Shown: positions 488 to 22,127, numbered from the stretch's first letter. The stretch is DNA of 24,000 bases from Desulfurococcales archaeon (GCA_032249255.1 JAVVGE010000012.1:7321-31320); one strand, 5' to 3'. Numbers and translations are program-made. The notes: generated by a model not told the origin, from the letters alone.

Positions 488-978
488 AGCTCTATAGTAG
501 ATCTTTGTGGGTCTTTGTCTCTCCTTTCCAGACCCTGTATATAATTTTTGTTTCTATAATATTTAAGTATTTATGGTGATCTAGCATGAAATCAACCAAT
601 TTCCACATCTCTACGAGAATGGGTTTCCATATTCTCCAAATAGCATTTCAATAACTATCACACCCCTCGTTTTCAGAGCACCTCTAACTACTAGGTTAGC
701 TATCTTTCTCCTGCGATCTTTTCTCTTCTCACCTTCCGTAAGCTTTCCGCAGCCTTCATAGCCTCCTTACTATTTGATCTATATTTCTCCCGAATACTCT
801 CCTCTCTATTTCTTAAGCTGTAGCCTAGAGTTATCTCGACAAGATCTGTTTTGAGGATTATTGCAGATGCCTCGTTGAGTGTTGCAGCAGAGTTCTCATT
901 AACATTAGCAGGCTTCACAATATTCTATGGTTTATAGAATAGAAACCCCCTGGAGAGCGAGGCCTGTTCTCTATCTAA
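488..978 (-). mobile_element. Relic tnpB-derived element (E0): left-end module fused to an internal tnpB fragment, with a right-end-like tail
   Basis: The minus strand of 945-978 reads TTAGATAGAGAACAGGCCTCGCTCTCCAGGGGGT. This aligns to the left end of the full element (14785-14821, TTAAAGAGAGCAAATGACCCCCCGCTCTTAAGGGCTG). It is followed directly by tnpB-homologous coding sequence. The far end shares AGACCC.CA.A..GATCTACTATAGA with the E2 terminus. Confidence 0.5.
610..918 (-). pseudogene. tnpB: tnpB (IS605 OrfB-type) internal fragment, truncated at 5' and 3' ends and frameshifted
   Basis: ORF 700..918 (VKPANVNENSAATLNEASAIILKTDLVEITLGYS...) aligns to residues 1-65 of ORF 15702..16475 (MKFVNVNENSVATLYEAFAVILETDLARTTLGYS...). 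DNA similarity continues in another frame to about 610 (IANLVVRGALKTRGVIVIE versus TANLIVRDALRTRGVIVIE). Confidence 0.7.
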
Positions 979-2471: not shown

Positions 2472-2649
2472 CCAGAAGATTAGACATTAGCAAACCTAAT
2501 AAGTAACACTGATCCGAAACACTCATCAGACAAACATTTTAAAACCTGACCAAATAAGCTACAAGCTAGAAGCATCGCACTTAACCGGAATAAAGATTTA
2601 TTATTATCTTCTAATACCTAACGACCCCTTTCTGCCTTGGTGGGCGGGT

Positions 2650-3048
2650 TTTTATGATGGGGTCTCGGATGTTACCCCTCTGAGAGGGGTTATTGTTTCT
2701 ATTTTCATGATCATCGGACTAGGGGTAAGGAAGCTAACCGAGTATCCAACTAAGACGCTATCCCCAAGCCTTCAGTGCGATATATTCTCATCATAGCCAT
2801 AGGAAGCTTAAAAACGCAAATACTACTCCGCCTTTAAAGGCGAGGTTTGCTGTTTCTCCATCAACTTTCTAAATGCTTTCGGGGGTCGGGTCTCGGCGGG
2901 CACGGTCGGGGGTCTTTGGCGGGCATACCTCGGGGGCTCGGGGATTCCTCTACTACTCTTGCCCGTCGAGACCCAGACCCTATACATTATAGAGTATAGA
3001 AGCCTTAAAAACCCCGCCCTAGAGGGGCGGGGCTTATCCTCTATTTAA
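2650..3048 (-). mobile_element. Miniature tnpB-family non-coding element E1 (family B): left end, TATA-like box, ATGATGAGA, 3' module
   Basis: The left-end module on the minus strand of 3000-3048 is TTAAATAGAGGATAAGCCCCGC..TTTTTAAGGC. The internal block GTAGTATTT+T/A run+ATGATGAGA (minus strand of 2786-2822) is shared with E2. The ~75-bp 3' module at 2659-2730 aligns with 6421-6492. Confidence 0.55.
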
Positions 3049-5882: not shown

Positions 5883-6176
5883 CTACTTTATCTCGCCCTC
5901 TTTTTCACTTTTAGCCTGCTCCTCAAGTTTTTTAAGCTCTGCCTCGATCTCCTTCTCGATCTCCTCAATAGGTTTAGGCGGCGGCGTGGTGGCAAGTGTA
6001 TAGCCTATCCAGCCCAGGATGCCCATAACACCTGCAACTGCAACGAACACCGTTAATTTTACCAGAATCTCGGCTATTGCTTGTGTGCTGAAGAATAGCC
6101 CATATAGGTATATAAGTATGACAACTGCACTGATCGCCATGAGTCCAACACCGATCAACTTATCCCTTTCAGGCAT
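5883..6176 (-). CDS. Small membrane protein (2 TM helices plus acidic/lysine-rich coiled-coil tail), hypothetical
   Basis: The ORF track gives 5883..6257. The internal Met at 6176 (MPERDKLIGVGLMAISAVVILIYLYG...) is the more plausible start. The C-terminal tail reads PPPKPIEEIEKEIEAELKKLEEQAKSEKEGEIK. Confidence 0.6.
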   Translation of the reverse strand: MPERDKLIGVGLMAISAVVILIYLYGLFFSTQAIAEILVKLTVFVAVAGVMGILGWIGYTLATTPPPKPIEEIEKEIEAELKKLEEQAKSEKEGEIK

Positions 6177-6392
6177 TTCCCGCACCACATGAAAATTATG
6201 CAAGGGATATATTAATATTGTATTGAATCCATACTCTAAGCAAACTGGTTTCAACAATCTATAGATACCATCTTATCACCTACAGTTCCTCAGTAGATGG
6301 TAGTCCTGTTTTATCCTCGCATCTACTTCTCAGCGGTCTCTTCAGGCGCGCCCACCGTAGTGGCTTCTAATCTATGACACCCTCCCCTTACA

Positions 6393-6744
6393 ATTCTATA
6401 GTAGATCATCTTTTCTATGCTGGGGTCTAGGGTGTTAGCCCTCTGGTGGGGGTTATCGTTTCTATCTCCACGATCATTGGGTTGGGGGTATGCTTCGGGG
6501 TCTCCCCCTAGGGACATCGGGTCACACTAACGGGATGCCCATCCGAGGCATCAGCCCCCAAACTCTCAAAACCATACATCTCATCATACAATAGATAATC
6601 CCTTAGATAGCTTAAAAATATAAATACTACCTCGCCCTGAAGGGCGAAGCTTGCCCTGTTGTCACGAATAGATGGGTTCAGAAGAACCTCCTGAAAGGGG
6701 TGAGGAGCCCAGCCCTTAAAAGCGGGGAAGAGGTTAGCTATTAA
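6393..6744 (-). mobile_element. Miniature tnpB-family non-coding element E2 (family B)
   Basis: The left-end module on the minus strand of 6708-6744 is TTAATAGCTAACCTCTTCCCCGCTTTTAAGGGCTG. It shares the hairpin+GTAGTATTTATATTTTTAAG+ATGATGAGA block with E1, and its 3' module 6421-6492 aligns with 2659-2730. ORF 6323..6517(-) lies inside it and is probably not a gene. Confidence 0.55.
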
Positions 6745-11060: not shown

Positions 11061-11143
11061 AGTGATACTAGTATTTATTATTTTAGTTTTAATAATATAA
11101 ATTAGACCCGCTATATTTTATTTCGAGGCGCCATATAATATCG

Positions 11144-12998: not shown

Positions 12999-13307
12999 GT
13001 GTCTAGTTTGTCTGATGAGGGGCTGAGAAGGCTAGTAAAAGAGGATCTTTTATCGATGATTATAGATGCTGGGCTTCTTGAGGAATTCATAGGATGGTTG
13101 AGAAGGAAGATGGGAGGGCATATAGATCCTGTAAAGATCGATAATATAGAGATAAGATATATGGTTGAGTTTCTAAGAGAGAAGAACCTTCTCTCCAGCG
13201 ACCCGATCCCAATGGATCTCGATGTAGATGATAAGCTTGAAAAGGAGGTTGAGAGATCTATGAGGAATGCGGGTGAGAGAAGAACTAGGAGGTATAAACC
13301 CACATAG
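12999..13307 (+). CDS. Hypothetical small charged protein
   Basis: 102 aa with balanced, non-repetitive composition (MSSLSDEGLRRLVKEDLLSMIIDAGLLEEFIGWLRRK...). The antisense ORF 12986..13303 is S/L-rich low complexity and less credible. GTG start. The 3' end overlaps the cysS 3' end convergently by 23 nt. Confidence 0.5.
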   Translation: MSSLSDEGLRRLVKEDLLSMIIDAGLLEEFIGWLRRKMGGHIDPVKIDNIEIRYMVEFLREKNLLSSDPIPMDLDVDDKLEKEVERSMRNAGERRTRRYKPT

Positions 13308-14718
13308 TTTTGTCCTTGGTATCGATCAGCTTTATCCCTGTTCTCATAAGCTGTTCCCTGATCCAGTCCGCCTCGTCATACATTTTCCTCTGCCTTAATC
13401 TATGTCTAATTTCTACTATCAGTTTCACCAGATCCTCGGGATCTATTTTCAGTGCAACCGAAGGCGTTTCCCTCCTTGGGAGGATGTCTATCACTCTATC
13501 CATCATCTCGAGGATCGATAGTGCCTTAAGTGCTAAGGAACCCCTTTCCCTTGCTACTATCTCGCCCCCTGCTATAGATAACAGTTCGTGAAGGTATGCA
13601 ATAGCCTTCGGGGTATCTAGATCGTCTTCTAGGGCTGAGACATAGCCGATCCATATTTCTGATAGTCTTTTCCATATCTCTAGATCTCTCTCTTCAAGCC
13701 TGTGCTCGACACCCCTTTCCTCAACAATTTTTCTGAGAACCTGGTATACCTCAAGGATCTTCTTATATACATTTTTAGCCTGCTCAAGGGACTCCTCTTT
13801 ATACTCTAAACTCCTCCTATAATTCGCTGAGAATATCCATAGCCTGATCACCTCTGCTCTCCATCTAGATATAGCTTCCCTGAGAGTCACTATGTTTCCC
13901 AGACTCTTGCTCATCTTCTCCCCAGAGATCGTTAAGTATCCCACGTGGAACCAGTACCTAACCCATGGGGATCTCCTAAAAAGAGCCTCACTCTGGGCCC
14001 TCTCGTTCTCGTGGTGAGGGAACACCAGGTCCTGACCGCCTCCGTGGATATCTATCTCACTGCCTAGGTATTTTGAGCTCATCACACTGCACTCAATATG
14101 CCATCCAGGCCTTCCGGGCCCCCAGGGGGATTCCCAATACGGCTCCCCCGGTTTCGCGGCTTTCCAGAGGGCGAAGTCGAAAGGGTTTCTCTTTTCCTCT
14201 AGGAACTCCTCTTCCTGTCTCCACTCCTCGCTTTTCCCTCTTCCACTCAGTCTCCCATAGTCTGGGTATGTTGATACATCGAAATACACAGATCCGCTTT
14301 TAGCTATGTAGGCATGGCCCCTCTCTAATAGCCCCTGGATGAAGCTTATTATATCTTCAATGTGGTCCGTGACCCTTGGATGAAGATCTATCGATATCCT
14401 CATAGCCTTTAGCAAGTCTAGATACTCTCTAGTATATAGATCCGCCAACTCCCTCCAAGAAATACCACTCTCCCGAGCCCTGCCTATGATCTTATCATCT
14501 ATATCGGTTATATTTTGAACATGAAAGACATTATAGCCCTTAAGAATTAATGTCTTCTTCAGAATATCGAATGCCACATAGGCCCTCGCATGCCCCACAT
14601 GAATATGATCATAGGGTGTGGGTCCGCAAAAATAGGCCTTAACATAGCCAGGTCTAGAGGGGGAGAACTCCTCCACAGCTTTGCTTAGAGTATTATAGAT
14701 CCTCAAAATAGTCTCCAC
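13285..14718 (-). CDS. cysS: Cysteinyl-tRNA synthetase
   Basis: Class-I motifs HVGHARAY (HIGH) and KMSKSLGN (KMSKS) are present, together with GWHIEC. GTG start, with an AT-rich box (AAATAATATT) about 30 nt upstream. Confidence 0.95.
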
Positions 14719-14878
14719 TTATAACTTAGAGGCTCAGAGGCTAATATTATTTCCAGCTAGATTTCCTCAGAAGAAACCTCAATATTAAAGAGAGCAAATG
14801 ACCCCCCGCTCTTAAGGGCTGTATTCTTTTTCATGATAGTAGAAATCTTTTTATATTTTTTCATTATTAATTAAATGG

Positions 14879-16475
14879 TTGGGGTGGAGGTTTAGAACAA
14901 AGAGATGTCTAGGGATAATGGCTAAGAGGATGGAAAAGAGGGATAAGAAGTGGATTTGGGTTGCAAAGCCAGGAGATAAGATAGTTGTTAGTAGAACCGC
15001 TGTTCTGCCCTCAAAGAAGTTATCTAGGAGAGAATTCAGGGCATTGGAAGAGATCGTGAATATATATAGCAAGATGCTTGGAGATGTGCTTCCCCACGCA
15101 TCTAGGAATATAATTGGGAATTACTATAGGCTTGAGAATGGGGAGTATCGAGAGCTAAGGAGTATCTATCTAGATATCCCATCCCACTATGTTCACAGAG
15201 TATGCCAGGATGCTGTTGAAAGGGTTTCCTCTCTTAGGAGGAACAGGGCTAGGCAATACTCTTGGAAGATCTTCGATGAGCTTATTAAGCATCTAGGTCT
15301 AGGGAAAAGGGATCTTAGGGACAGGAGGATCAGGAGACATCTCTGGAGGAGATCTTAGGAGATCGCTCAGTATCAGGTAGAATGAGATGAGTAATGGAAT
15401 ACTAGTGCCTGGGATCAATAGTGTTAGTCTATGGCTAGTTGATGACCATGCTTGGAAACCAGTAAACCCTACGAAGATCAATATAAATGGCGTTGAGAAC
15501 ACTTTCTTCACAAGTGTTGCTATCAATACCAATAGGGGCTGGGTGCACCTCGATCTAGAGCCTTCTAAGGAGTTCTACAAGCTTTTGGCCAAGGGTTTTA
15601 AGCCGACATCCTAAGCTAAGATTAAGCTTGATAGGAGGAGTAGGAGGGTAGCTTTCCACCTATCCCTCGAGAAGGAGGTCGAGATCTACAGCCCAGAGAA
15701 TATGAAGTTTGTTAATGTTAATGAGAACTCTGTAGCAACTCTCTACGAGGCATTCGCAGTAATCCTAGAAACAGATCTTGCCAGGACAACACTGGGCTAT
15801 AGCTATAGGAGAGAGAGTATTCAGAGGAGATATGGATCCGATAGTAGAGAGACTAGGAAGGCTATGAAAAAGCTTAGAGAGAGAAAGAAGAAGAGGGACT
15901 ATAGGTGGAAGACAGCAAACCTAATAGTAAGGGACGCTCTGAGGACTAGGGGTGTTATAGTTATTGAGAGGATCTCAGGGGATGATATAAGGGTTATGAT
16001 CGCTAGGTATAGGAATAAGCAGCTGAGGCACAGGATATATCAGAGTGCATTGAAGGGTGAGCTGAACGCGATAATAGATAAGGCTAGAGAGTACGGTGTG
16101 CCGGTATTGATGGTAGATCCTAGGAACACTTCGAAGATCTGCCCTATACACAATGCCTTGATAGAGTATGGGGAAGATAGGATAGGTGTCTGTAGCAAAG
16201 GTGGTGAGAGATGGCATAGAGAGGTAGTTGCCTTGATTAATATTTATCTTAAGGCCCTCGAAGCCCTTTATGAGGGCAATGTCCAGAAGGGCTTCGGGGT
16301 TCCAAGTATAGATGGAAGCCCCTTTCCGCTGTGCTCCACAGCCACCGGTGAGCCCATAGAGATCCATAGATCTCTGTGGGGGAGGTGGAAGTCCCCCGAT
16401 GCCACAGGGCTAGAAACCCTGTGGATCAAGAGGCAAAGCAATCCAAAACAAATGAATATCAGTGATAATCAATGA
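14879..16475 (+). pseudogene. tnpB: tnpB (OrfB) disrupted by a frame change near 15356-15386 and an in-frame TAA at 15612-15614
   Basis: Three collinear ORFs (14879..15358, 15387..15614, 15702..16475) together give a TnpB layout. The N-terminal helical part is RTAVLPSKKLSRREFRALEE...LDIPSHYVHRVCQDAVE. It is followed by a RuvC-I-like VNVNENS, RuvC-II VIVIE, VDPRNTSKICP, a degenerate zinc-finger region, and HREVVALINI. Confidence 0.8.
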
Positions 16476-16493
16476 TCATCGGGGGACAAGCGG
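16253..16493 (+). ncRNA. Candidate TnpB guide-RNA (omega/reRNA-type) scaffold overlapping the tnpB 3' end
   Basis: The position (last ~220 nt of tnpB plus the right end) is where omega-RNAs are encoded in characterised TnpB elements. There is a nested hairpin at 16259-16296 with covariation versus the copy at 17563-17603, and a further stem CCACAGGG-N7-CCCTGTGG at 16402-16424. The whole module is kept in the miniature derivative E3. The RNA ends and its expression are unknown. Confidence 0.4.
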
Positions 16494-16744
16494 CAAGGCC
16501 TATCCTCTATTTAAGGTCATAAAGATCATAATGAAGACTTTAACCCCTTCACGCTATGTGAGAGATACTCTCGCTCTCAAGCTTGGGTTCTATGCTGGGA
16601 TTTAAAATGTTATTAAGTCGGGCACACATGGTATCCAGGGATCTTTTCCGGCCATCAATTAAGAGGCAAGAATCCCAAGATATTTAGCTGATATTTAGCT
16701 AGGAGCATAGCCTCGGCACTTATTTTGCTCCTAAACTGGTATTC

Positions 16745-17320
16745 ATGGGAAGCGCTTTGGGATTCAGGCTCGAGGATCTGGTTCCCATTTTTAAGTGGCT
16801 CTCTAGTCTAGGCCTAGGCTTCGTCATTATTGGAGATACATGTATCTACTACACTATCGGTAGGAGGGTTTTTGAAGGAGACGTTGATCTCTATATCTAT
16901 GAAGGCTCGCTCATCTCAGTCGAGGGAGATATAATTTCTCATGCTGATGAGGTCGGCTGGGATCTAGGTTCCACATGGCTCGGCACCCCATCTCTAGTCG
17001 TGAGAGTTGGTTCTGAAGAGGTCTCCCTCGATCTATATGAGGCTGTCCATGATTTCTACGTTCCGTGGGAGTTTCTGGAGAGCCCCAGGGTTGTGGATAT
17101 CTCCGGATACCCTCTCAGAATGCTTTCTCCTGAGCAGCATATAGTGCTTAAGGCTAGATCTGGTTCTGAGGGTATCGATGAAGAGCTCCACGAGTATGTG
17201 GATCTATATGAATCCGGGGATCTCAAGATCTCCATCCATGAACTTAAGAAGCTCGCATCATTCTTCGAGGACCAGAGAATAATATTGTCTAGACTCAGAA
17301 ATGCTGGTTTCCCTCTTTGA
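16745..17320 (+). CDS. Putative nucleotidyltransferase-fold protein (Pol-beta superfamily, MNT/AbiEii-like)
   Basis: 191 aa. VIIGDTCIYYTIGRRVFEGDVDLYIY fits the hG[GS]-x(9-14)-DhDh minimal NTase pattern. The C-terminal half is helical (LSPEQHIVLKARSGSEG...). No HEPN-like or other partner ORF is adjacent. Confidence 0.5.
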   Translation: MGSALGFRLEDLVPIFKWLSSLGLGFVIIGDTCIYYTIGRRVFEGDVDLYIYEGSLISVEGDIISHADEVGWDLGSTWLGTPSLVVRVGSEEVSLDLYEAVHDFYVPWEFLESPRVVDISGYPLRMLSPEQHIVLKARSGSEGIDEELHEYVDLYESGDLKISIHELKKLASFFEDQRIILSRLRNAGFPL

Positions 17321-17326
17321 CAGCTC

Positions 17327-17368
17327 GCCCTCACCAAGGGGCTAACACCTGGGACCGGGTAATAGAAA
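17327..17368 (+). repeat. Isolated family-B right-end fragment, joined tail-to-tail to the E3 right end
   Basis: GCCCTCACCAAGGGGCTAACACCTGGGACCGGGTAATAGAAA aligns with the element-sense termini of E1 (reverse complement of 2649-2690) and E2 (reverse complement of 6411-6452). Confidence 0.5.
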
Positions 17369-17800
17369 CCGCTTGTCCCTCGATGGTTATTGATTATCGC
17401 TGATATTCATTTGTTTTGGATTGCTTTGCCTCTTGATCCACAGGGTTTCTAGCCCTGTGGCATCGGGGGACTTCCACCTCCCCCACAGAGATCTTGGGAT
17501 CTCTATGGGCTCACCGGTGGCTGTGGAGCACAGCGGAAAGAGGCTCCCATCTATCCTAGATCCCGAGGCTCTATTGGGGCAGAGCCCCCATCTAGAGCCT
17601 CGGTCTCGGGAGCTCAAGCATCATAGCATCCCGAGGTCTCTCCATGCCCAGGTCTAGCAGAGATTATCGCCTCATCATCAATACAATTATGGATCGGATA
17701 CTTATAAGCTTAACCCAGACAGCAAACAAATATAAAAGCATCCCCACTATCATGAAAAAAAGATACAGCCCGTCCTTCAAAGCGGGGAGAAGGTTATTTA
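17369..17800 (-). mobile_element. Miniature derivative (E3) of the family-A tnpB element: left end + AT box + ATGATGAGG + complete 3' (guide-RNA-type) module
   Basis: 17369-17554 is an inverted copy of 16308-16493, with about 8 mismatches in 186 bp by eye. Weaker similarity extends to ~17606/~16253. The reverse complement of 17728-17787 matches 14804-14861. ORF 17387..17617(-) is simply the copied tnpB C-terminus (PLCSTATGEPIEI.RSLWGRWKSPDATGLETLWIKRQSNPKQMNISDNQ). Confidence 0.7.
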
Positions 17801-17801
17801 G

Positions 17802-18038
17802 CTAGTACTTTTCTACTATAACTGAGGTGATAGTCTTTCTGATGCCTTGGATCGGTAGGATCGAATCCTTAACCACTCTGAGAGCTGTCTCTATATCCTT
17901 GGCCTCTACCCTTACAACAAGATCATACTCGCCCGTGATGCTCATAACCTCCTTGACGCCTGCTATATTCTTTAAAGCCCTGCCCACGCTATCTAGCCTA
18001 CCAGGATCAACTACTATAAATACTAGAACCTCTGCCAT
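17802..18038 (-). CDS. Stand-alone Lrp/AsnC-type ligand-binding (RAM) domain protein
   Basis: 78 aa. AEVLVFIVVDPGRLDSVGRALKNIAGVKEVMSITGEYDLVVRVEAKDIETAL matches the beta-alpha-beta-beta-alpha-beta RAM domain pattern of Lrp/AsnC regulators, and there is no HTH. Confidence 0.75.
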   Translation of the reverse strand: MAEVLVFIVVDPGRLDSVGRALKNIAGVKEVMSITGEYDLVVRVEAKDIETALRVVKDSILPIQGIRKTITSVIVEKY

Positions 18039-18352
18039 TAGAGCCCCTAGCTATTTTTGCATCAGGGTTAATAACCCTACCTAAGCGTATGGGAGGGAAT
18101 ATAGCTTTCTCTCACTCTGAAGACGGGATCGGCTAGCCATGGGAAATGGGTATTGATTAGCGGTTATAGGCATTTGAGGCATGATTCGCTATAGATGGTA
18201 TAAGAGCATCTCTAGCAATATAAGGAGATATGGTTTGAATCCAGTAACGTCGTGCGGGCAAAATTCTTAGTTGTTTACTCTAAAATGGTTTTGTTTAGTC
18301 TGGCCTAGATATCGCATTGCCATGATTGTTGGGGTTATTGAGAAAATAAGGA

Positions 18353-20290
18353 TCAGATCTTCTCTATGGGGTTTATACCTAGGGCCTTCAGCCCTTTTCC
18401 CAGCACCTGTCTAACTCCCCTTACTAGATGTACTTTGTACGCCCTCACCCCAGGGTTCGGCTCTCTAATCACCTGATCCTCTTGATACCAGGAGTTAAAA
18501 AGATCTGAGATTCTTATAAGCATGGATGCTATGTCCTCAGGCTTTAGCTCGTCTATAGCCTTTGTCAATGTTGTTGGGGCCCTAGAGATCTCTATTAAAA
18601 GCTGTCTTCTCTTCTGGTTCTCCTCAGCAGCGCTGTAATCAACCTCATCCAGGCCCGGGATCTTCCCAGCCTTCTCCAGTATGCTTGATGCCCTAGCATA
18701 TGTATACATGATATATGGCGCGGAGTTTCTCTCGAAGTTAAGTGCATCCTCAATCTTAAACACCATGGGCTTTGACGCCGATACAGAGACGAGGGAGTAT
18801 TTAACCGCAGACACCCCTATAACATTCGCAACGTGCTCCCCAATCCCCTCAGACCCCCTTTCCCTCAGTATCTCCATGCTCCTCGCTACTGACGTCTCGA
18901 GCACCTCGTCCAGGGTTACATATCTTCCTCTTCTCCCACTCATTCTCTGCCCTGGGAGGGATACTATTTCATAGCTATAGTGTATCAGGTTGGAGGCCTC
19001 TCTCTTATATCCAAGTGCGTATAGGGCTAGCCTCAGCTGTGCTTGTGGTAGGAGCTGCTCAGATGCTATTATGTTTATAACATAATCAGCCCCCGATTCT
19101 CTGAACTTCTTTATACTGTACCCAATATCCCTAACAGTATATAGGGTTGTCTCATCACTCCTCATAAGGATTAGAGGAGGTATCTCCAAGGTTTTCGGGA
19201 GCCTCAGTTCCTCCCTTATCCCCGGCGCTCTCAGTAGATCGTTGAATATTAGGGCTGGGGCCCCCTTATAATTGCCATAGTATTTCGAGGATCTCGCTGC
19301 CTGGATCACCTGCTCCACTATCCCCTCCCACGCTAGATCACTCTCGAAGTCCCACTTATCGAATTCAGCTCCCATCAGACTCAGGGTTTTTCTGAACCCT
19401 CTGAGGCATAGCTCGACAGCTCCTCTGAACGCCTTAATGACCTCTGGGTCTGATGCCTTCTCATAGGATGCCATGAGTCTCGAGATCTCCTCCTCGGGGT
19501 TCTCCAGGCTGGATAGCTTCTCCATGAGTGTGTTAAAGATCTGTGGGTGTTTCTCGCTCAGCCTCGCTGCATCTGATAATAAACTGTCTAGTTCTTTGAG
19601 CTTCTCCATGTATCCCTCGGGATCTTTTTCCCTTAGCTCCTCAAGACCCCTCTTGATCGAGAGGATCTCTAGTATAACGTTCGTCGATGCATATATATAT
19701 CCGATCCAATGATCCTCCTTAACATCCTCAGGAGGATCAGGCATACCCAGAGCCATGAAACCCAGCACCATTATGGCTACCTGCCTACCCATATCATTCA
19801 CATAGAACCTAGTCTCAACCACGTGCCCCCTGAGCCTCAGCATAGATGCAATAGCTATCCCGAGAGCAGCGTTCCTCCCAGAGCCTATATGAAGAGGATG
19901 AACAGGATTCGCAGACACATACTCAACAACATATCTCCTCGGCTCCCTAGTCCTCACAACACCATATCCCTCCCCATAAGCCTCGATAGATCTGAAAGTA
20001 ACCCTAGCCAACTCCGAAACATCTAGCCAAATATCAAGGTAACCCGAGATCGCAGAGAACCTCCTAACATACCTATTCCCCGAGAGCATAGCGCCTATAG
20101 CGCCCTCCAAATCCCCCTGTGATAAACCGCTCTTCTTAAGCACACCGTGGAGCGGTATAGCTAGATCCCCCAACTCAGGCCTCGGAGGAATCTCTATTCT
20201 TAGATCATCATCAGAAACCCTGAGAAAAGAAGCCACACCCCTCCTAACAAGCCCAGCAACATAGCTAAAAGGCTCCTCAGGAATCTCCAC
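18353..20290 (-). CDS. argS: Arginyl-tRNA synthetase
   Basis: VEYVSANPVHPLHIGSGRNAALG (HIGH region), FYVNDMGRQV and a C-terminal DALR-type anticodon-binding region (SAPYIMYTYARASSIL) are present. GTG start. Confidence 0.9.
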   Translation of the reverse strand: MEIPEEPFSYVAGLVRRGVASFLRVSDDDLRIEIPPRPELGDLAIPLHGVLKKSGLSQGDLEGAIGAMLSGNRYVRRFSAISGYLDIWLDVSELARVTFRSIEAYGEGYGVVRTREPRRYVVEYVSANPVHPLHIGSGRNAALGIAIASMLRLRGHVVETRFYVNDMGRQVAIMVLGFMALGMPDPPEDVKEDHWIGYIYASTNVILEILSIKRGLEELREKDPEGYMEKLKELDSLLSDAARLSEKHPQIFNTLMEKLSSLENPEEEISRLMASYEKASDPEVIKAFRGAVELCLRGFRKTLSLMGAEFDKWDFESDLAWEGIVEQVIQAARSSKYYGNYKGAPALIFNDLLRAPGIREELRLPKTLEIPPLILMRSDETTLYTVRDIGYSIKKFRESGADYVINIIASEQLLPQAQLRLALYALGYKREASNLIHYSYEIVSLPGQRMSGRRGRYVTLDEVLETSVARSMEILRERGSEGIGEHVANVIGVSAVKYSLVSVSASKPMVFKIEDALNFERNSAPYIMYTYARASSILEKAGKIPGLDEVDYSAAEENQKRRQLLIEISRAPTTLTKAIDELKPEDIASMLIRISDLFNSWYQEDQVIREPNPGVRAYKVHLVRGVRQVLGKGLKALGINPIEKI

Positions 20291-20357: not shown

Positions 20358-20459
<102 letters not shown>

Positions 20460-20617
20460 AAAAATAGTGGTTATACAGAGCTCTTATACCTTTACCCTGA
20501 AATCCACATCCTCGAAGATAGTTAAGGATCTCAGTCTAAAAGTCTTAAGACTATCGCAGCGACCCCAAACAAGGGTTGAAGAAAAGCAATAAAACCCCAG
20601 ATAGAATTAAATAATTG

Positions 20618-20696
20618 GCGGCGGTCGTCTAGCCTGGTCTAGGACGCCGGCCTCCCGAGCCGGCGATCCCGGGTTCAAATCCCGGCCGCCGCACCA
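20618..20696 (+). tRNA. tRNA-Gly (anticodon CCC); CCA encoded
   Basis: It folds as GCGGCGG-UC-GUCU-AGCCUGGUCUA-GGAC-G-CCGGC-CUCCCGA-GCCGG-CGAUC-CCGGG-UUCAAAU-CCCGG-CCGCCGC-A-CCA, a clean cloverleaf. Confidence 0.9.
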
Positions 20697-20761: not shown

Positions 20762-22127
20762 TTGGATCGATCTGTTGATCTTCGTGTCCTTCCGATCTCT
20801 CGTGCAGATCGGAAGGAATTTCTGTGTGAATATATGTATAAATATCCCTATGAAGATATCCCCATGATGTGGCTCGATAATATAGATATCAAATCCCTGG
20901 GTGATAGGACAAGGATTTTGATCCTCCAGAGGCTGAGGGAGAGGCTTGGGTATGTGGGTGCCTATAGGGCTCTCGGGATCTCGGACTCATCCCTATCAAG
21001 ATACCTAAGAGCGGAGAGGAGAATACCTGACGAAGTAGTTAGAAGAGCCCTCCAAAACCTAGGGGAGGAGGAGTTTAAACAGATCGTGCAGGGGGAGGAG
21101 AGGCTGAGGGCTGTTGGCATAGTGAGGAAAGACGGATCCATAGACTATGGATTAGCACTACAGCTGATAGCCCTAGCATCAGGGGATGAGTATCTTAAGC
21201 AGGCTATCCTGAGATTCACAGTAGAGCATTTCAGGGAGGATCTTAGGAAGATGCTCGGGCTAGTACCAACAACAATAAAGCTAACATGGGATCAGGGCTT
21301 TGAGGAGTTTCTGAGGGAGAGGAAGAAGAGGATGAAGATCAAAAGCGAAAGCACAATGAAATACTATAGAAACCTATTCAGAAAGCATCTAGAGGGCAAG
21401 ACACTTAGCCAGGATCTAATAGACTATGTGATCAGCCACCCAGTCAAATGGCTTAGAAACGTGTTTAGGCATTATATCCAATATCTATACTATACTAGGA
21501 AGATCTCTCCAGAGACATATGGCTGGATAATGGAGATTGTGCCTAGCAGAAGCTATAGAATGGATGTTAGACCATACCCAATTGATATCGAGGATCTGAG
21601 GAGGACTATGGATTTCCTGAGAGAGGCATAGAAAATACTATGTGGTGTATAGGGCTATGCTTGAGGGGGGACTAAGGCTTAGCCACACACTCCACATGAT
21701 CGAGAACTTCAGCCCAGAAGAGGTTATAGAGATACCAAACACAGCGATAGCTACCAAGAGGCTAGTATGCTTCGATAGCTTCTGCAGATACTATGTAGGC
21801 ATTAGAGAGACTATGAAGCCATGTGAATGGACATATCTATCCAAAGAAACCATGGAAATGATAAGAGGGATAGCGGGGGCTAGGATGAGGAGGCAGGTGA
21901 TCCAGAAATATGCTAGGGAGCACGGGCTACTACCACCAAAAACAATGAGGAAGATCTCTTGGAGGTTGATGATAAAGGCTATGCCAAGAGAGGTCGCTAG
22001 ATTCATACAATCAAGGTTTGGAGAGCTTAAGATCTCTGAAGCCAGGTATGAGGATCTACTTAGCGAAGCCGACCAGCACTACCCGAGATACCTTGAAAAA
22101 CTACGAGGAGAGCTTGGGATAGATTAA
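20762..22127 (+). pseudogene. Archaeal tyrosine integrase (SSV/pNOB8-like family) split by one frameshift near 21612-21641
   Basis: ORFs 20762..21631 and 21642..22127 are contiguous in different frames. The second frame is open from 21621 (ERHRKYYVVYRAMLEGGLRLSH), so a 1-nt indel would join them. The first ORF has an HTH-like segment (LGISDSSLSRYLRAERRIPDEVV). Catalytic-type blocks are GGLRLSH, MRKISWRLM and ARFIQSRFG...EARY. The gene lies 66-137 nt downstream of tRNA-Gly. Confidence 0.7.
20788..20816. promoter_or_regulatory. Perfect 11-bp inverted repeat CCTTCCGATCT-N7-AGATCGGAAGG between tRNA-Gly and the likely integrase ATG (20834)
   Basis: Read directly from the sequence. It sits inside the TTG-started ORF extension of 20762..21631 and upstream of the first ATG (MYKYPYEDIP...). 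Confidence 0.5.

Follow-up and report, generated by a model that had tools for sequence, protein, structure and literature searches.

A decayed tnpB insertion sequence and a miniature relative with a common, omega RNA-like 3′ module flank a nucleotidyltransferase gene in a crenarchaeon from a hot spring

Introduction

Non-autonomous insertion sequences (IS) with tnpB as their only gene, the omega RNAs belonging to them and their protein-less derivatives, the palindrome-associated transposable elements (PATEs), are already established (PMC3119063), and it has been stated before that PATEs often encode omega RNAs for use in trans (PMC10055086). For archaea, the sense-overlapping RNAs (sotRNAs) of IS1341-type tnpB genes are represented in Rfam by haloarchaeal models only, namely RF02656 and RF02657, according to Gomes-Filho (2015) as cited in PMC12558985. 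The present study concerns a stretch of 24,000 nucleotides from a Desulfurococcales archaeon (GCA_032249255.1, JAVVGE010000012.1:7321-31320), denoted the window and numbered from its first letter, in which a decayed tnpB insertion sequence and a short relative of it, a miniature inverted-repeat transposable element (MITE), face each other across a single nucleotidyltransferase (NTase) gene. A preceding reading of the bare sequence (the sequence-only reading) had noticed this arrangement and proposed either a composite or captured-cargo transposon or an insertion hot spot as its origin.

As judged from the analysis reported here, it is likely that the two elements, both members of one family, entered the locus independently, one to the left and one to the right of a host NTase gene, that they share a module resembling the omega RNA or right-end element RNA (reRNA) of TnpB systems, that gene conversion has kept the two modules alike, and that the enclosed gene is a bystander. 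The host would be an uncultured hot-spring crenarchaeon of Desulfurococcales/Sulfolobales-like affiliation, in which the full-length copy, a tnpB-only insertion sequence, would have turned into a pseudogene since its insertion. The MITE, a PATE in the wider sense, would combine the left end of the family including a TATA-like box, a core of 119 nt and a 3′ module of 236 nt. This module, consisting of the right transposon end and a putative multi-helix RNA scaffold, would be the part that both forms must keep.

The inverted repeat and its two elements

A repeat search of the window returned two inverted arms of 189 nt, 16305-16493 and 17369-17557, which are 95% complementary and 875 nt apart, in close agreement with the recurrence of the 3′ end that had been read at 16308-16493 and 17369-17554. 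The BLAST alignment of the repeat is longer and pairs 16259-16493 with 17602-17369 (236 nt, 89%), so that the weaker similarity formerly seen up to ~16253 and ~17606 is confirmed as far as 16259 and 17602. The left ends are alike as well, since 14804-14861 matches the reverse complement of 17725-17787 with 78% identity over 63 nt and 83% in a 35-nt core; the short copy has indeed retained the left-end module. Profiles of the family locate the full copy at 14816-16493 (E=0) and the MITE at 17369-17771 (E=2e-126), and with these E-values the repeat is not a product of chance.

The full-length copy is a decayed tnpB-only insertion sequence of 1.68 kb on the plus strand (14819..16493), whose left end starts with CTGTATTC and whose right end finishes with ...GGGACAAGCGG. 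Upstream of the left end lies the conserved junction or target triplet GGG (14816-14818, plus strand). A TTTATAT box at 14850..14856 (plus strand), which is conserved in the left ends of full and miniature copies, may represent an archaeal TATA box and is a candidate promoter element of tnpB and the omega RNA. The tnpB pseudogene was delimited to 14921..16475 (plus strand) by three-frame translation, Pfam and NCBIfam models and alignment with intact relatives. Its reading frames 14879-15358, 15387-15614 and 15702-16475 are joined by one frameshift, located between ~15355 and 15390, and one in-frame TAA (15612-15614). Furthermore, the aspartate of RuvC-I is replaced by asparagine in codon 15714-15716 (PVDVNEN in the family, FVNVNEN in the window), thus an intact open reading frame (ORF) with a D-E-D RuvC triad is absent and the earlier description of the gene as decayed holds. 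Domain models still recognise it, PF07282 with E=1.1e-9 (38.8 bits, cutoff 26.3) and TIGR01766 with E=5e-17 (62.2 bits, cutoff 32), while the full-length model NF040570 yields only 46.6 of 100 bits. Elsewhere in the window, at 629-938 (minus strand), a third relic of the same tnpB family is found, which lacks ends and comprises ~300 bp of the middle of the gene (74% identity to 15685-15967, profile E=3e-57).

The MITE occupies 17369-17768 on the minus strand and is a protein-less element of 400 bp. Read in its own direction, it consists of the left end (17722..17768, CTGTATC...TTTTTCATGATAGT...TTTATAT) with the same TTTATAT box as the full copy at ~17731-17737, a MITE-specific core of 119 nt (approximately 17603..17721) and the 3′ module (17369..17602), which comprises scaffold and right end as in the full copy, all on the minus strand. 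In the 407-nt MITE consensus, a profile search against 24 full elements assigns positions 1-52 to the left end and 172-407 to the 3′ module of the full element, whereas 53-171 are confined to MITEs. The short copy had been described as left end, AT-rich box and 3′ module only, derived from its neighbour by loss of most of tnpB. While the assignment as a miniature, non-coding relative of the tnpB element is correct, its composition and parentage are not: the core is conserved among MITE copies and without detectable homology in the full elements, and a MITE that possesses such a core is not a deletion product of the adjacent full copy. Instead, because the same left half is found at ~46 unique junctions, the short copy is a member of an abundant MITE/PATE family, being non-coding, equipped with both parental ends, present at many distinct sites and, as shown by excision in silico (see below), precisely inserted.

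In these respects the MITE resembles the PATEs of Haloquadratum (PMC3119063) and the PATE-like elements of Geobacillus (PMC10055086), which are likewise short, protein-less and numerous and contain both ends of a tnpB transposon together with the guide-scaffold region; like them, it would presumably be served in trans by transposase and TnpB. It differs from them by the 119-nt core without parental counterpart, hence it is no simple end-fusion or deletion product, by its occurrence in hot-spring crenarchaea, and by a number of MITE copies about equal to that of the tnpB-bearing ones.

Several other MITEs of the family were observed in the loci which had been fetched for the presence of the element (numbered with L). 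In three of them (L037:5289-5558, minus; L030:5074-5343, plus; L122:4342-4611, plus) another segment of ~60 nt (CTTCCGAGAAGCCTCCTAGGGCATATCGCCCGGGAGGTGGAGTGGGGG) replaces the CCACC...CCCATAGAGATC hairpin region, which is a modular swap inside the scaffold. In L122:5609-6235 (minus) the right end of a MITE is in frame with a truncated alcohol-dehydrogenase-like gene and the chimeric ORF begins within the MITE (MGEVEVPRWPQG...), thus MITE insertions can provide gene fragments with new 5′ ends.

The tnpB family, its boundaries and its transposase

With the reconstituted TnpB, 334 homologues were found, of which the intact ones comprise 521-567 residues, are ~80% identical and carry PF27234 and PF07282. 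Throughout the family the sequence WHRE is found where Cas12 and TnpB proteins have DRD, as aligned with Cas12m, so that the third catalytic residue is a glutamate and the triad is D-E-E. The zinc finger is of the type CxxH...C...H. A search of the PDB with the sequence of one intact TnpB gave no match, and the family profile matched the PDB only weakly, with Cas12m/Cas12f at E=0.0015. Named relatives of TnpB and of CysS, which is encoded next to the full copy, stem from metagenome-assembled genomes (MAGs) of Desulfurococcales and Sulfolobales. A 22-nt pattern of the module matches species-representative genomes at three places, which belong to a single MAG (Desulfurococcales archaeon PSS.bin.20) and are too few for copies per genome to be counted; in hot-spring metagenomes at least 119 stretches contain it. 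BLAST searches with parts of the element against all loci yielded 137 complete modules with ~101 unique right-end junctions, where ~48 modules are joined to a tnpB body and ~46 to the left half of a MITE. All full copies (~26) are tnpB-only, with ~100 nt between the left end and the start codon of tnpB.

The boundaries of the family are sharp. The right end is invariant, ...CATCGRGGGACAAGCGG, terminates in GCGG and is followed by unrelated flanks at ~100 unique insertion sites. On the left, the conserved sequence begins with GGGCTGTATCC and the element end itself with CTGTATCC, upstream of which solely the GGG is conserved (44 unique junctions), which is also the only candidate for a transposon-associated motif (TAM). 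Elements of the IS200/IS605 type, mobilised by a Y1 TnpA, possess similar subterminal hairpins at both ends and a target motif of 4-5 nt on the 5′ side of the left end. In the tnpB family described here such a target motif is not evident, and inspection by eye, without systematic folding or repeat searching of the ends, shows no hairpin common to the left and right end. The hairpin CCCGCCCTTNAGGGCGGG is, by contrast, common to other families of the IS605 type in these loci, where the left flank is of the TTAC type. The signature of IS607 consists of a (G)GG target, GG termini and the absence of both target duplication and inverted repeats (PMC6188088), and all of these are found in the present family, as are tandem imperfect subterminal repeats near the right end. 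The GGG 5′ junction and the GG of the right end would therefore fit a serine transposase of the IS607 type better than an IS605 Y1 enzyme. As none of the full copies contains a tnpA gene, the assignment of the transposase is putative; unlike IS607 itself, the ~26 full copies are devoid of a serine recombinase gene, and such an enzyme would presumably mobilise them.

Compared with IS1341-type tnpB-only insertion sequences of the IS200/IS605-IS607 group, the family has in common the single tnpB with an MJ0013-type N-terminal domain (in the intact relatives) and a Cas12f1-like TNB domain, the lack of terminal inverted repeats and target duplication, a structured module that extends over the 3′ end of the gene to the right end, as well as many copies per genome including many pseudogenes. 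It is set apart by ends without the subterminal hairpin shared by the other IS605-type families there (by eye), by the GGG junction and GG terminus, by the D-E-E triad and the CHCH zinc finger, and by a module without counterpart in Rfam. With junctions like those of IS607, an unusual catalytic triad and a MITE that has a core of its own, it represents an undescribed crenarchaeal tnpB family.

The 3′ module

In the full copy the 3′ module covers 16259..16493 (plus strand) and overlaps the last ~70 codons of tnpB, followed by an 18-nt tail and the right end. The minimum free energy of 16250-16520 is -117.6 kcal/mol (z=-6.4 versus shuffles), that of the MITE module is -100.8 kcal/mol (z=-5.1). 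A consensus fold with 8 helices was obtained for 94 unique copies from a trimmed alignment; RNAalifold on the raw alignment of 349 columns gave a poor consensus. It contains a long-range helix of 11 bp, GUCCCYCGAUG / CAUCGRGGGAC, and the closing helix CCGCU / AGCGG adjoins the transposon boundary. In an alignment of 95 copies, 95.1% of the pair cells are standard pairs compared to 33-51% if the partners are slid by 1-3 columns, and 66 cells are changed on both sides versus 23±7 in shuffles, with 0 of 500 shuffles reaching 66; both measures are to be read with the reservation that the copies are related and that the structure was derived from the same alignment. Five pairs of one hairpin alternate between A-U and G-C. 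The first helix (P1) coincides with the region of weaker similarity between the window copies (16259-16305), where it is preserved in the MITE by three double compensatory substitutions. In position and architecture, i.e. at the 3′ end of tnpB, with a conserved and covarying fold that stops at the element boundary and with flanks that differ at every site, the module matches an omega RNA-like scaffold. In common with the archaeal sotRNAs and omega RNAs of RF02656 and RF02657, it is a structured region on the sense strand over the 3′ end of tnpB; unlike them, it has no sequence or structure match to the haloarchaeal models.

The block could alternatively have been kept as coding sequence, either for the C-terminal ~70 residues of TnpB or for a small peptide of the MITE (ORF of 76 residues, 17387-17617, minus strand). 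Indeed the tail DGSP.PLGSTAT.EP...SLW.RWK is conserved even in a TnpB of 50% identity, and the frames through the block are open in the MITEs of the window and of L090. However, paired columns are the least variable ones at all codon positions, the entropy at third codon positions being 0.22 in paired versus 0.67 in unpaired columns, and numerous full and mini copies have lost the open frame, which together argue against conservation simply as coding sequence. Furthermore, the compensatory changes alter the peptide, as is evident from the IEIPRS and IGISIS variants read from the aligned sequences. Conservation as protein has therefore next to no probability, and the assumption of an RNA-like instead of a coding block in the sequence-only reading is supported.

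A second alternative regards the module as a cis-acting transposition end, with transposase sites or a single-strand DNA structure and without a functional RNA. The module does include the right end, and in front of the terminus tandem imperfect repeats of ~10 nt are found (ATCAATGAC / ATCAATAAC / ATCGAGGGAC), which resemble the subterminal repeats of IS607-type elements (PMC6188088). Yet conservation and covariation extend over 236 nt and 8 helices, far beyond the terminal repeats, and the long-range helix closes exactly at the boundary. The sense strand exhibits 324 G.U versus 159 A.C cells, the homology between MITEs and full elements begins within a base or two of helix P1, and location and architecture are those of described omega RNAs. 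A purely cis-acting end is thus considered unlikely.

Since the predicted scaffold ends exactly at the boundary of the element, a transcript leaving the element would carry the flanking DNA as its guide. This arrangement corresponds to the omega RNA/reRNA of TnpB systems, and an intact TnpB from other copies could use the module in trans. From these features we infer that the module would be transcribed, bound by TnpB and employed with the flanking sequence as guide. If the full copy gave rise to an omega RNA, its guide would be 16494..16513 (plus strand, CAAGGCCTATCCTCTATTTA), and that of an omega RNA from the MITE would be 17349..17368 (minus strand, TTTCTATTACCCGGTCCCAG), situated within the relic of another transposon just past the stop codon of the NTase gene; both flanks are defined by position only.

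The NTase gene between the elements

The enclosed gene (16745..17320, plus strand) encodes a DUF2204 protein of the NTase fold (PF09970, 4e-44). The spacer had been thought to contain this gene only, but it also harbors the right-end relic of a transposon of a different IS605-type family, denoted type A. Its first half (17328..17368, plus strand) is split by the MITE from the second half (17769..17797, plus strand), which consists of the hairpin CCCGTCCTTCAAAGCGGG and the tail GAGAAGGTTAT. Upon removal of 17369-17768 in silico, the split matches to type A (E=2.6e-4 and 0.39) merge into one continuous match with E=2.6e-8. As the two halves of the relic rejoin, the MITE is a precise and independent insertion. 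A possible second type A relic, inverted and upstream of the NTase gene (16545-16611), is marginal (E=0.04) and is not relied on.

On its outer sides the locus is bordered by cysS (13285-14718, minus strand) next to the full copy and, beyond the MITE, by genes for a 78-residue protein with an Lrp/AsnC ligand domain (17802-18038, minus strand) and for argS (18353-20290, minus strand). The exact NTase protein is encoded on 23 metagenome contigs. Six strain loci (L001-L006) share both the arrangement and 98-99.9% sequence identity with the window; none of them has an unbroken tnpB, and in some the gene has fallen into still more pieces. In the nearest available relatives (CysS 85% and 79% identical) cysS does not adjoin the NTase, Lrp or argS genes, and because its neighbourhood differs there, the junction of the full copy coincides with a lineage-specific synteny break. 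No family copy is present at the 5′ side of cysS in these two relatives, the 85% relative having a MITE and a full copy elsewhere; the neighbourhood of argS in L133 also differs from the window. In the relative with 85% CysS identity (L134/L135) the cysS block is inverted with respect to the window lineage, and a MITE of the family (6113-6526) is located between the genes of a glutamate synthase GXGXG subunit and enolase, at a site where the window has an 84-nt spacer only (11061-11143).

If the full element and the MITE were the arms of a compound transposon mobilising the NTase gene, related elements on both sides of one gene with 95% identical 3′ modules would be expected, as observed; a single gene is likewise enclosed in L041 by a convergent pair of a rearranged, full-derived copy and a MITE with 99.5% identical modules, and on its cysS side the locus is no longer syntenic with the relatives. 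However, as the elements are inverted, with asymmetric ends and no terminal inverted repeats, no bracket of left end and right end surrounds the NTase gene on either strand, and the outer ends do not constitute a functional pair. The genes within other convergent pairs (L122, L041 and L084) are of a housekeeping type and mutually unrelated, namely those of a hydrolase together with a dehydrogenase fragment, of a PP-loop-like protein and of an unnamed protein of 288 residues. An NTase homologue of 78% identity in L090 resides between DnaG-like and deacetylase-like genes; its similarity to the window is confined to the coding region, and its flanks are unrelated. In addition, the MITE lies inside a relic whose halves still flank it, and a neighbour within ~1.3 kb is expected for ~10% of copies by density alone. 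A composite or captured-cargo transposon is thus extremely unlikely, and the NTase gene is a bystander host gene.

Another possibility is that both modules have been domesticated as regulators of the NTase gene, by sense read-through on the left and antisense transcription on the right, or together with a nuclease-dead, TldR-like TnpB. The retention of the arrangement in six of six strain variants, the dead local tnpB beside modules that are still foldable, and the glutamate at the third catalytic position of the family would be compatible with this. Nevertheless, at 98-99.9% identity between the strains a shared arrangement says little on selection, and the local tnpB, a fragmented pseudogene, does not encode an inactive protein in intact form. 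A recurrent link to NTase genes was seen neither for the homologue in L090 nor in the other convergent pairs, and between strains the modules evolve more rapidly than the spacer, contrary to what purifying selection would bring about in a fixed regulator. Domestication is therefore regarded as very unlikely, and independent insertion on either side of a bystander gene as the preferred explanation.

Probable homogenisation of neighbouring copies

The two modules of the window are 94.7% identical compared to a family median of 82% (4465 pairs), which places the pair in the top 1%, and each module is the best match of the other. Other close inverted pairs behave similarly, with 100% identity in L016 and 99.5% in L041. 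Between the strains the repeat cores of 191 bp differ at 9-16 sites (5-8%), whereas the 875-bp spacer differs at 0-3 (0-0.3%), and strain-specific variants, including a 6-nt insertion in a loop, are common to both copies within a strain. The simplest explanation of the 95% identity is probably gene conversion between the inverted arms and with other copies of the family.

Insertion sites and neighbouring IS605-type elements

The second proposal of the sequence-only reading, an insertion hot spot, is partly supported. Around known copies additional modules occur at a density of ~0.037 per kb, corresponding to a second copy within ~1.3 kb for about one copy in ten, hence density alone already accounts for a neighbour with a chance of ~10%. 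The family also displays a bias in its targets. At least three other IS605-type families of the fetched loci have the 18-nt sequence CCCGCCCTTNAGGGCGGG as their subterminal hairpin. Under a strict criterion, 4 of 44 unique insertions have this hairpin immediately at the left junction, compared to 0.9% among GGG sites overall (P=8e-4), and a looser criterion adds further left junctions. Both copies of the window adjoin such hairpin relics. There is thus some support for a preference of the family for GGG at the feet of the hairpins of other IS605-type elements. Neighbouring pairs are convergent in 15 of 34 cases; as several pairs represent one locus sampled more than once, no enrichment of this orientation is claimed.

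The palindrome CCCGCCCTTNAGGGCGGG itself occurs ~150 times in the fetched loci, both strands counted (e.g. in L030, L065 and L073, and in the window at 17769-17786). At least three types of element ends share this hairpin, ...ATAGAAAC-hairpin-GAGGGTGTCAT, ...GGGGGAACC-hairpin-GAGGAGGTCAG and flank-TTACAACTGAAAGC-hairpin-GATGGCTA..., and they resemble the right and left ends of classical elements of the IS605 type that a single TnpA would serve. The window contains two small, protein-less type A elements at 6382-6650 and 2617-2880 (both minus strand; profile E=4e-27 and 6e-16). In both of them the left end bears a hairpin (…GGGCAAGC-TTCGCCCTTCAGGGCGAG-GTAGTATTTATATTTTTAAGC) and the right end reads ...GGCTAACACCC.AGACCCCAGCATAGAAA; forms of type A with 1.6 kb are present in other loci.

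Further mobile DNA is found downstream of the MITE. A strain-polymorphic insertion of 1.4 kb between the Lrp-like gene and argS (L002:11435-12851, partial in L005) carries an intact TnpB of 427 residues from another family, with a CPRCG...CPRCG zinc finger and no similarity to the module studied here; the window displays the corresponding empty site at 18178/18179. Beyond argS two divergent tRNA genes are located at 20361-20459 (minus) and 20618-20696 (plus), the former of 99 nt, detected by Rfam only and probably intron-containing. The 92 nt between them (20488-20580) are the sole stretch without an alignment to the strain variants. Beside the tRNA genes an archaeal phage-type integrase (20762-22127, plus strand) is split into two ORFs (289 residues with a helix-turn-helix and 161 residues with Phage_integr_3); since L001 has a single ORF of 431 residues, the integrase is a pseudogene in this strain.

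Weighing and significance

A number of points weigh against the explanation favoured here. The module has no match in Rfam 15, neither at the gathering threshold nor at E≤10. The glutamate of WHRE in place of the usual aspartate and the CxxH...C...H zinc finger make the nuclease activity even of the intact relatives uncertain, and an intact copy of the family in the genome of the window itself would have to be assumed. A tnpA gene of either type is absent from every copy, matching tnpA genes elsewhere not having been searched for. A requirement of the transposase could by itself account for the retention of the module in the MITE. The evidence for gene conversion stems from short-read metagenome assemblies, where variants can be mis-assigned between repeat copies, and assembly could produce part of the homogenisation pattern. 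Finally, no empty site was found for the full copy: its flanks rejoined in silico match no known module and the search among the fetched loci found none, as is to be expected of loci which were fetched by presence of the element.

A more far-reaching interpretation may tentatively be put forward, although it is on balance doubtful. The family, marked by its D-E-E triad and GGG junction, would represent a tnpB lineage of IS607-like character that has not been described, whose MITEs would be free-standing guide-RNA genes, composed of TATA box, 119-nt leader and omega scaffold, that equal or outnumber the nuclease genes. They would insert preferentially at the hairpins of rival IS605-type elements, some guides would read into the ends of these competitors, and frequent gene conversion, both local and ectopic, would keep the scaffolds uniform. 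If so, guide genes would outlive the nuclease gene, and recombination instead of selection on the local copy would maintain them.

Irrespective of that interpretation, the striking inverted repeat of the window is traced to routine transposon biology and the suggestion of gene capture is removed. A large and apparently active tnpB/MITE family is documented in uncultured hot-spring crenarchaea, with precise ends and a covariation-supported scaffold that is contained in no RNA database. The alignment of the module could seed an omega RNA model for the TnpB systems of thermophiles, in which there is interest because they could serve as small and heat-stable genome editors. The GGG junction, the preference for rival hairpins and the apparent homogenisation of neighbouring copies provide leads on how guide-RNA modules may persist and spread without a nuclease.

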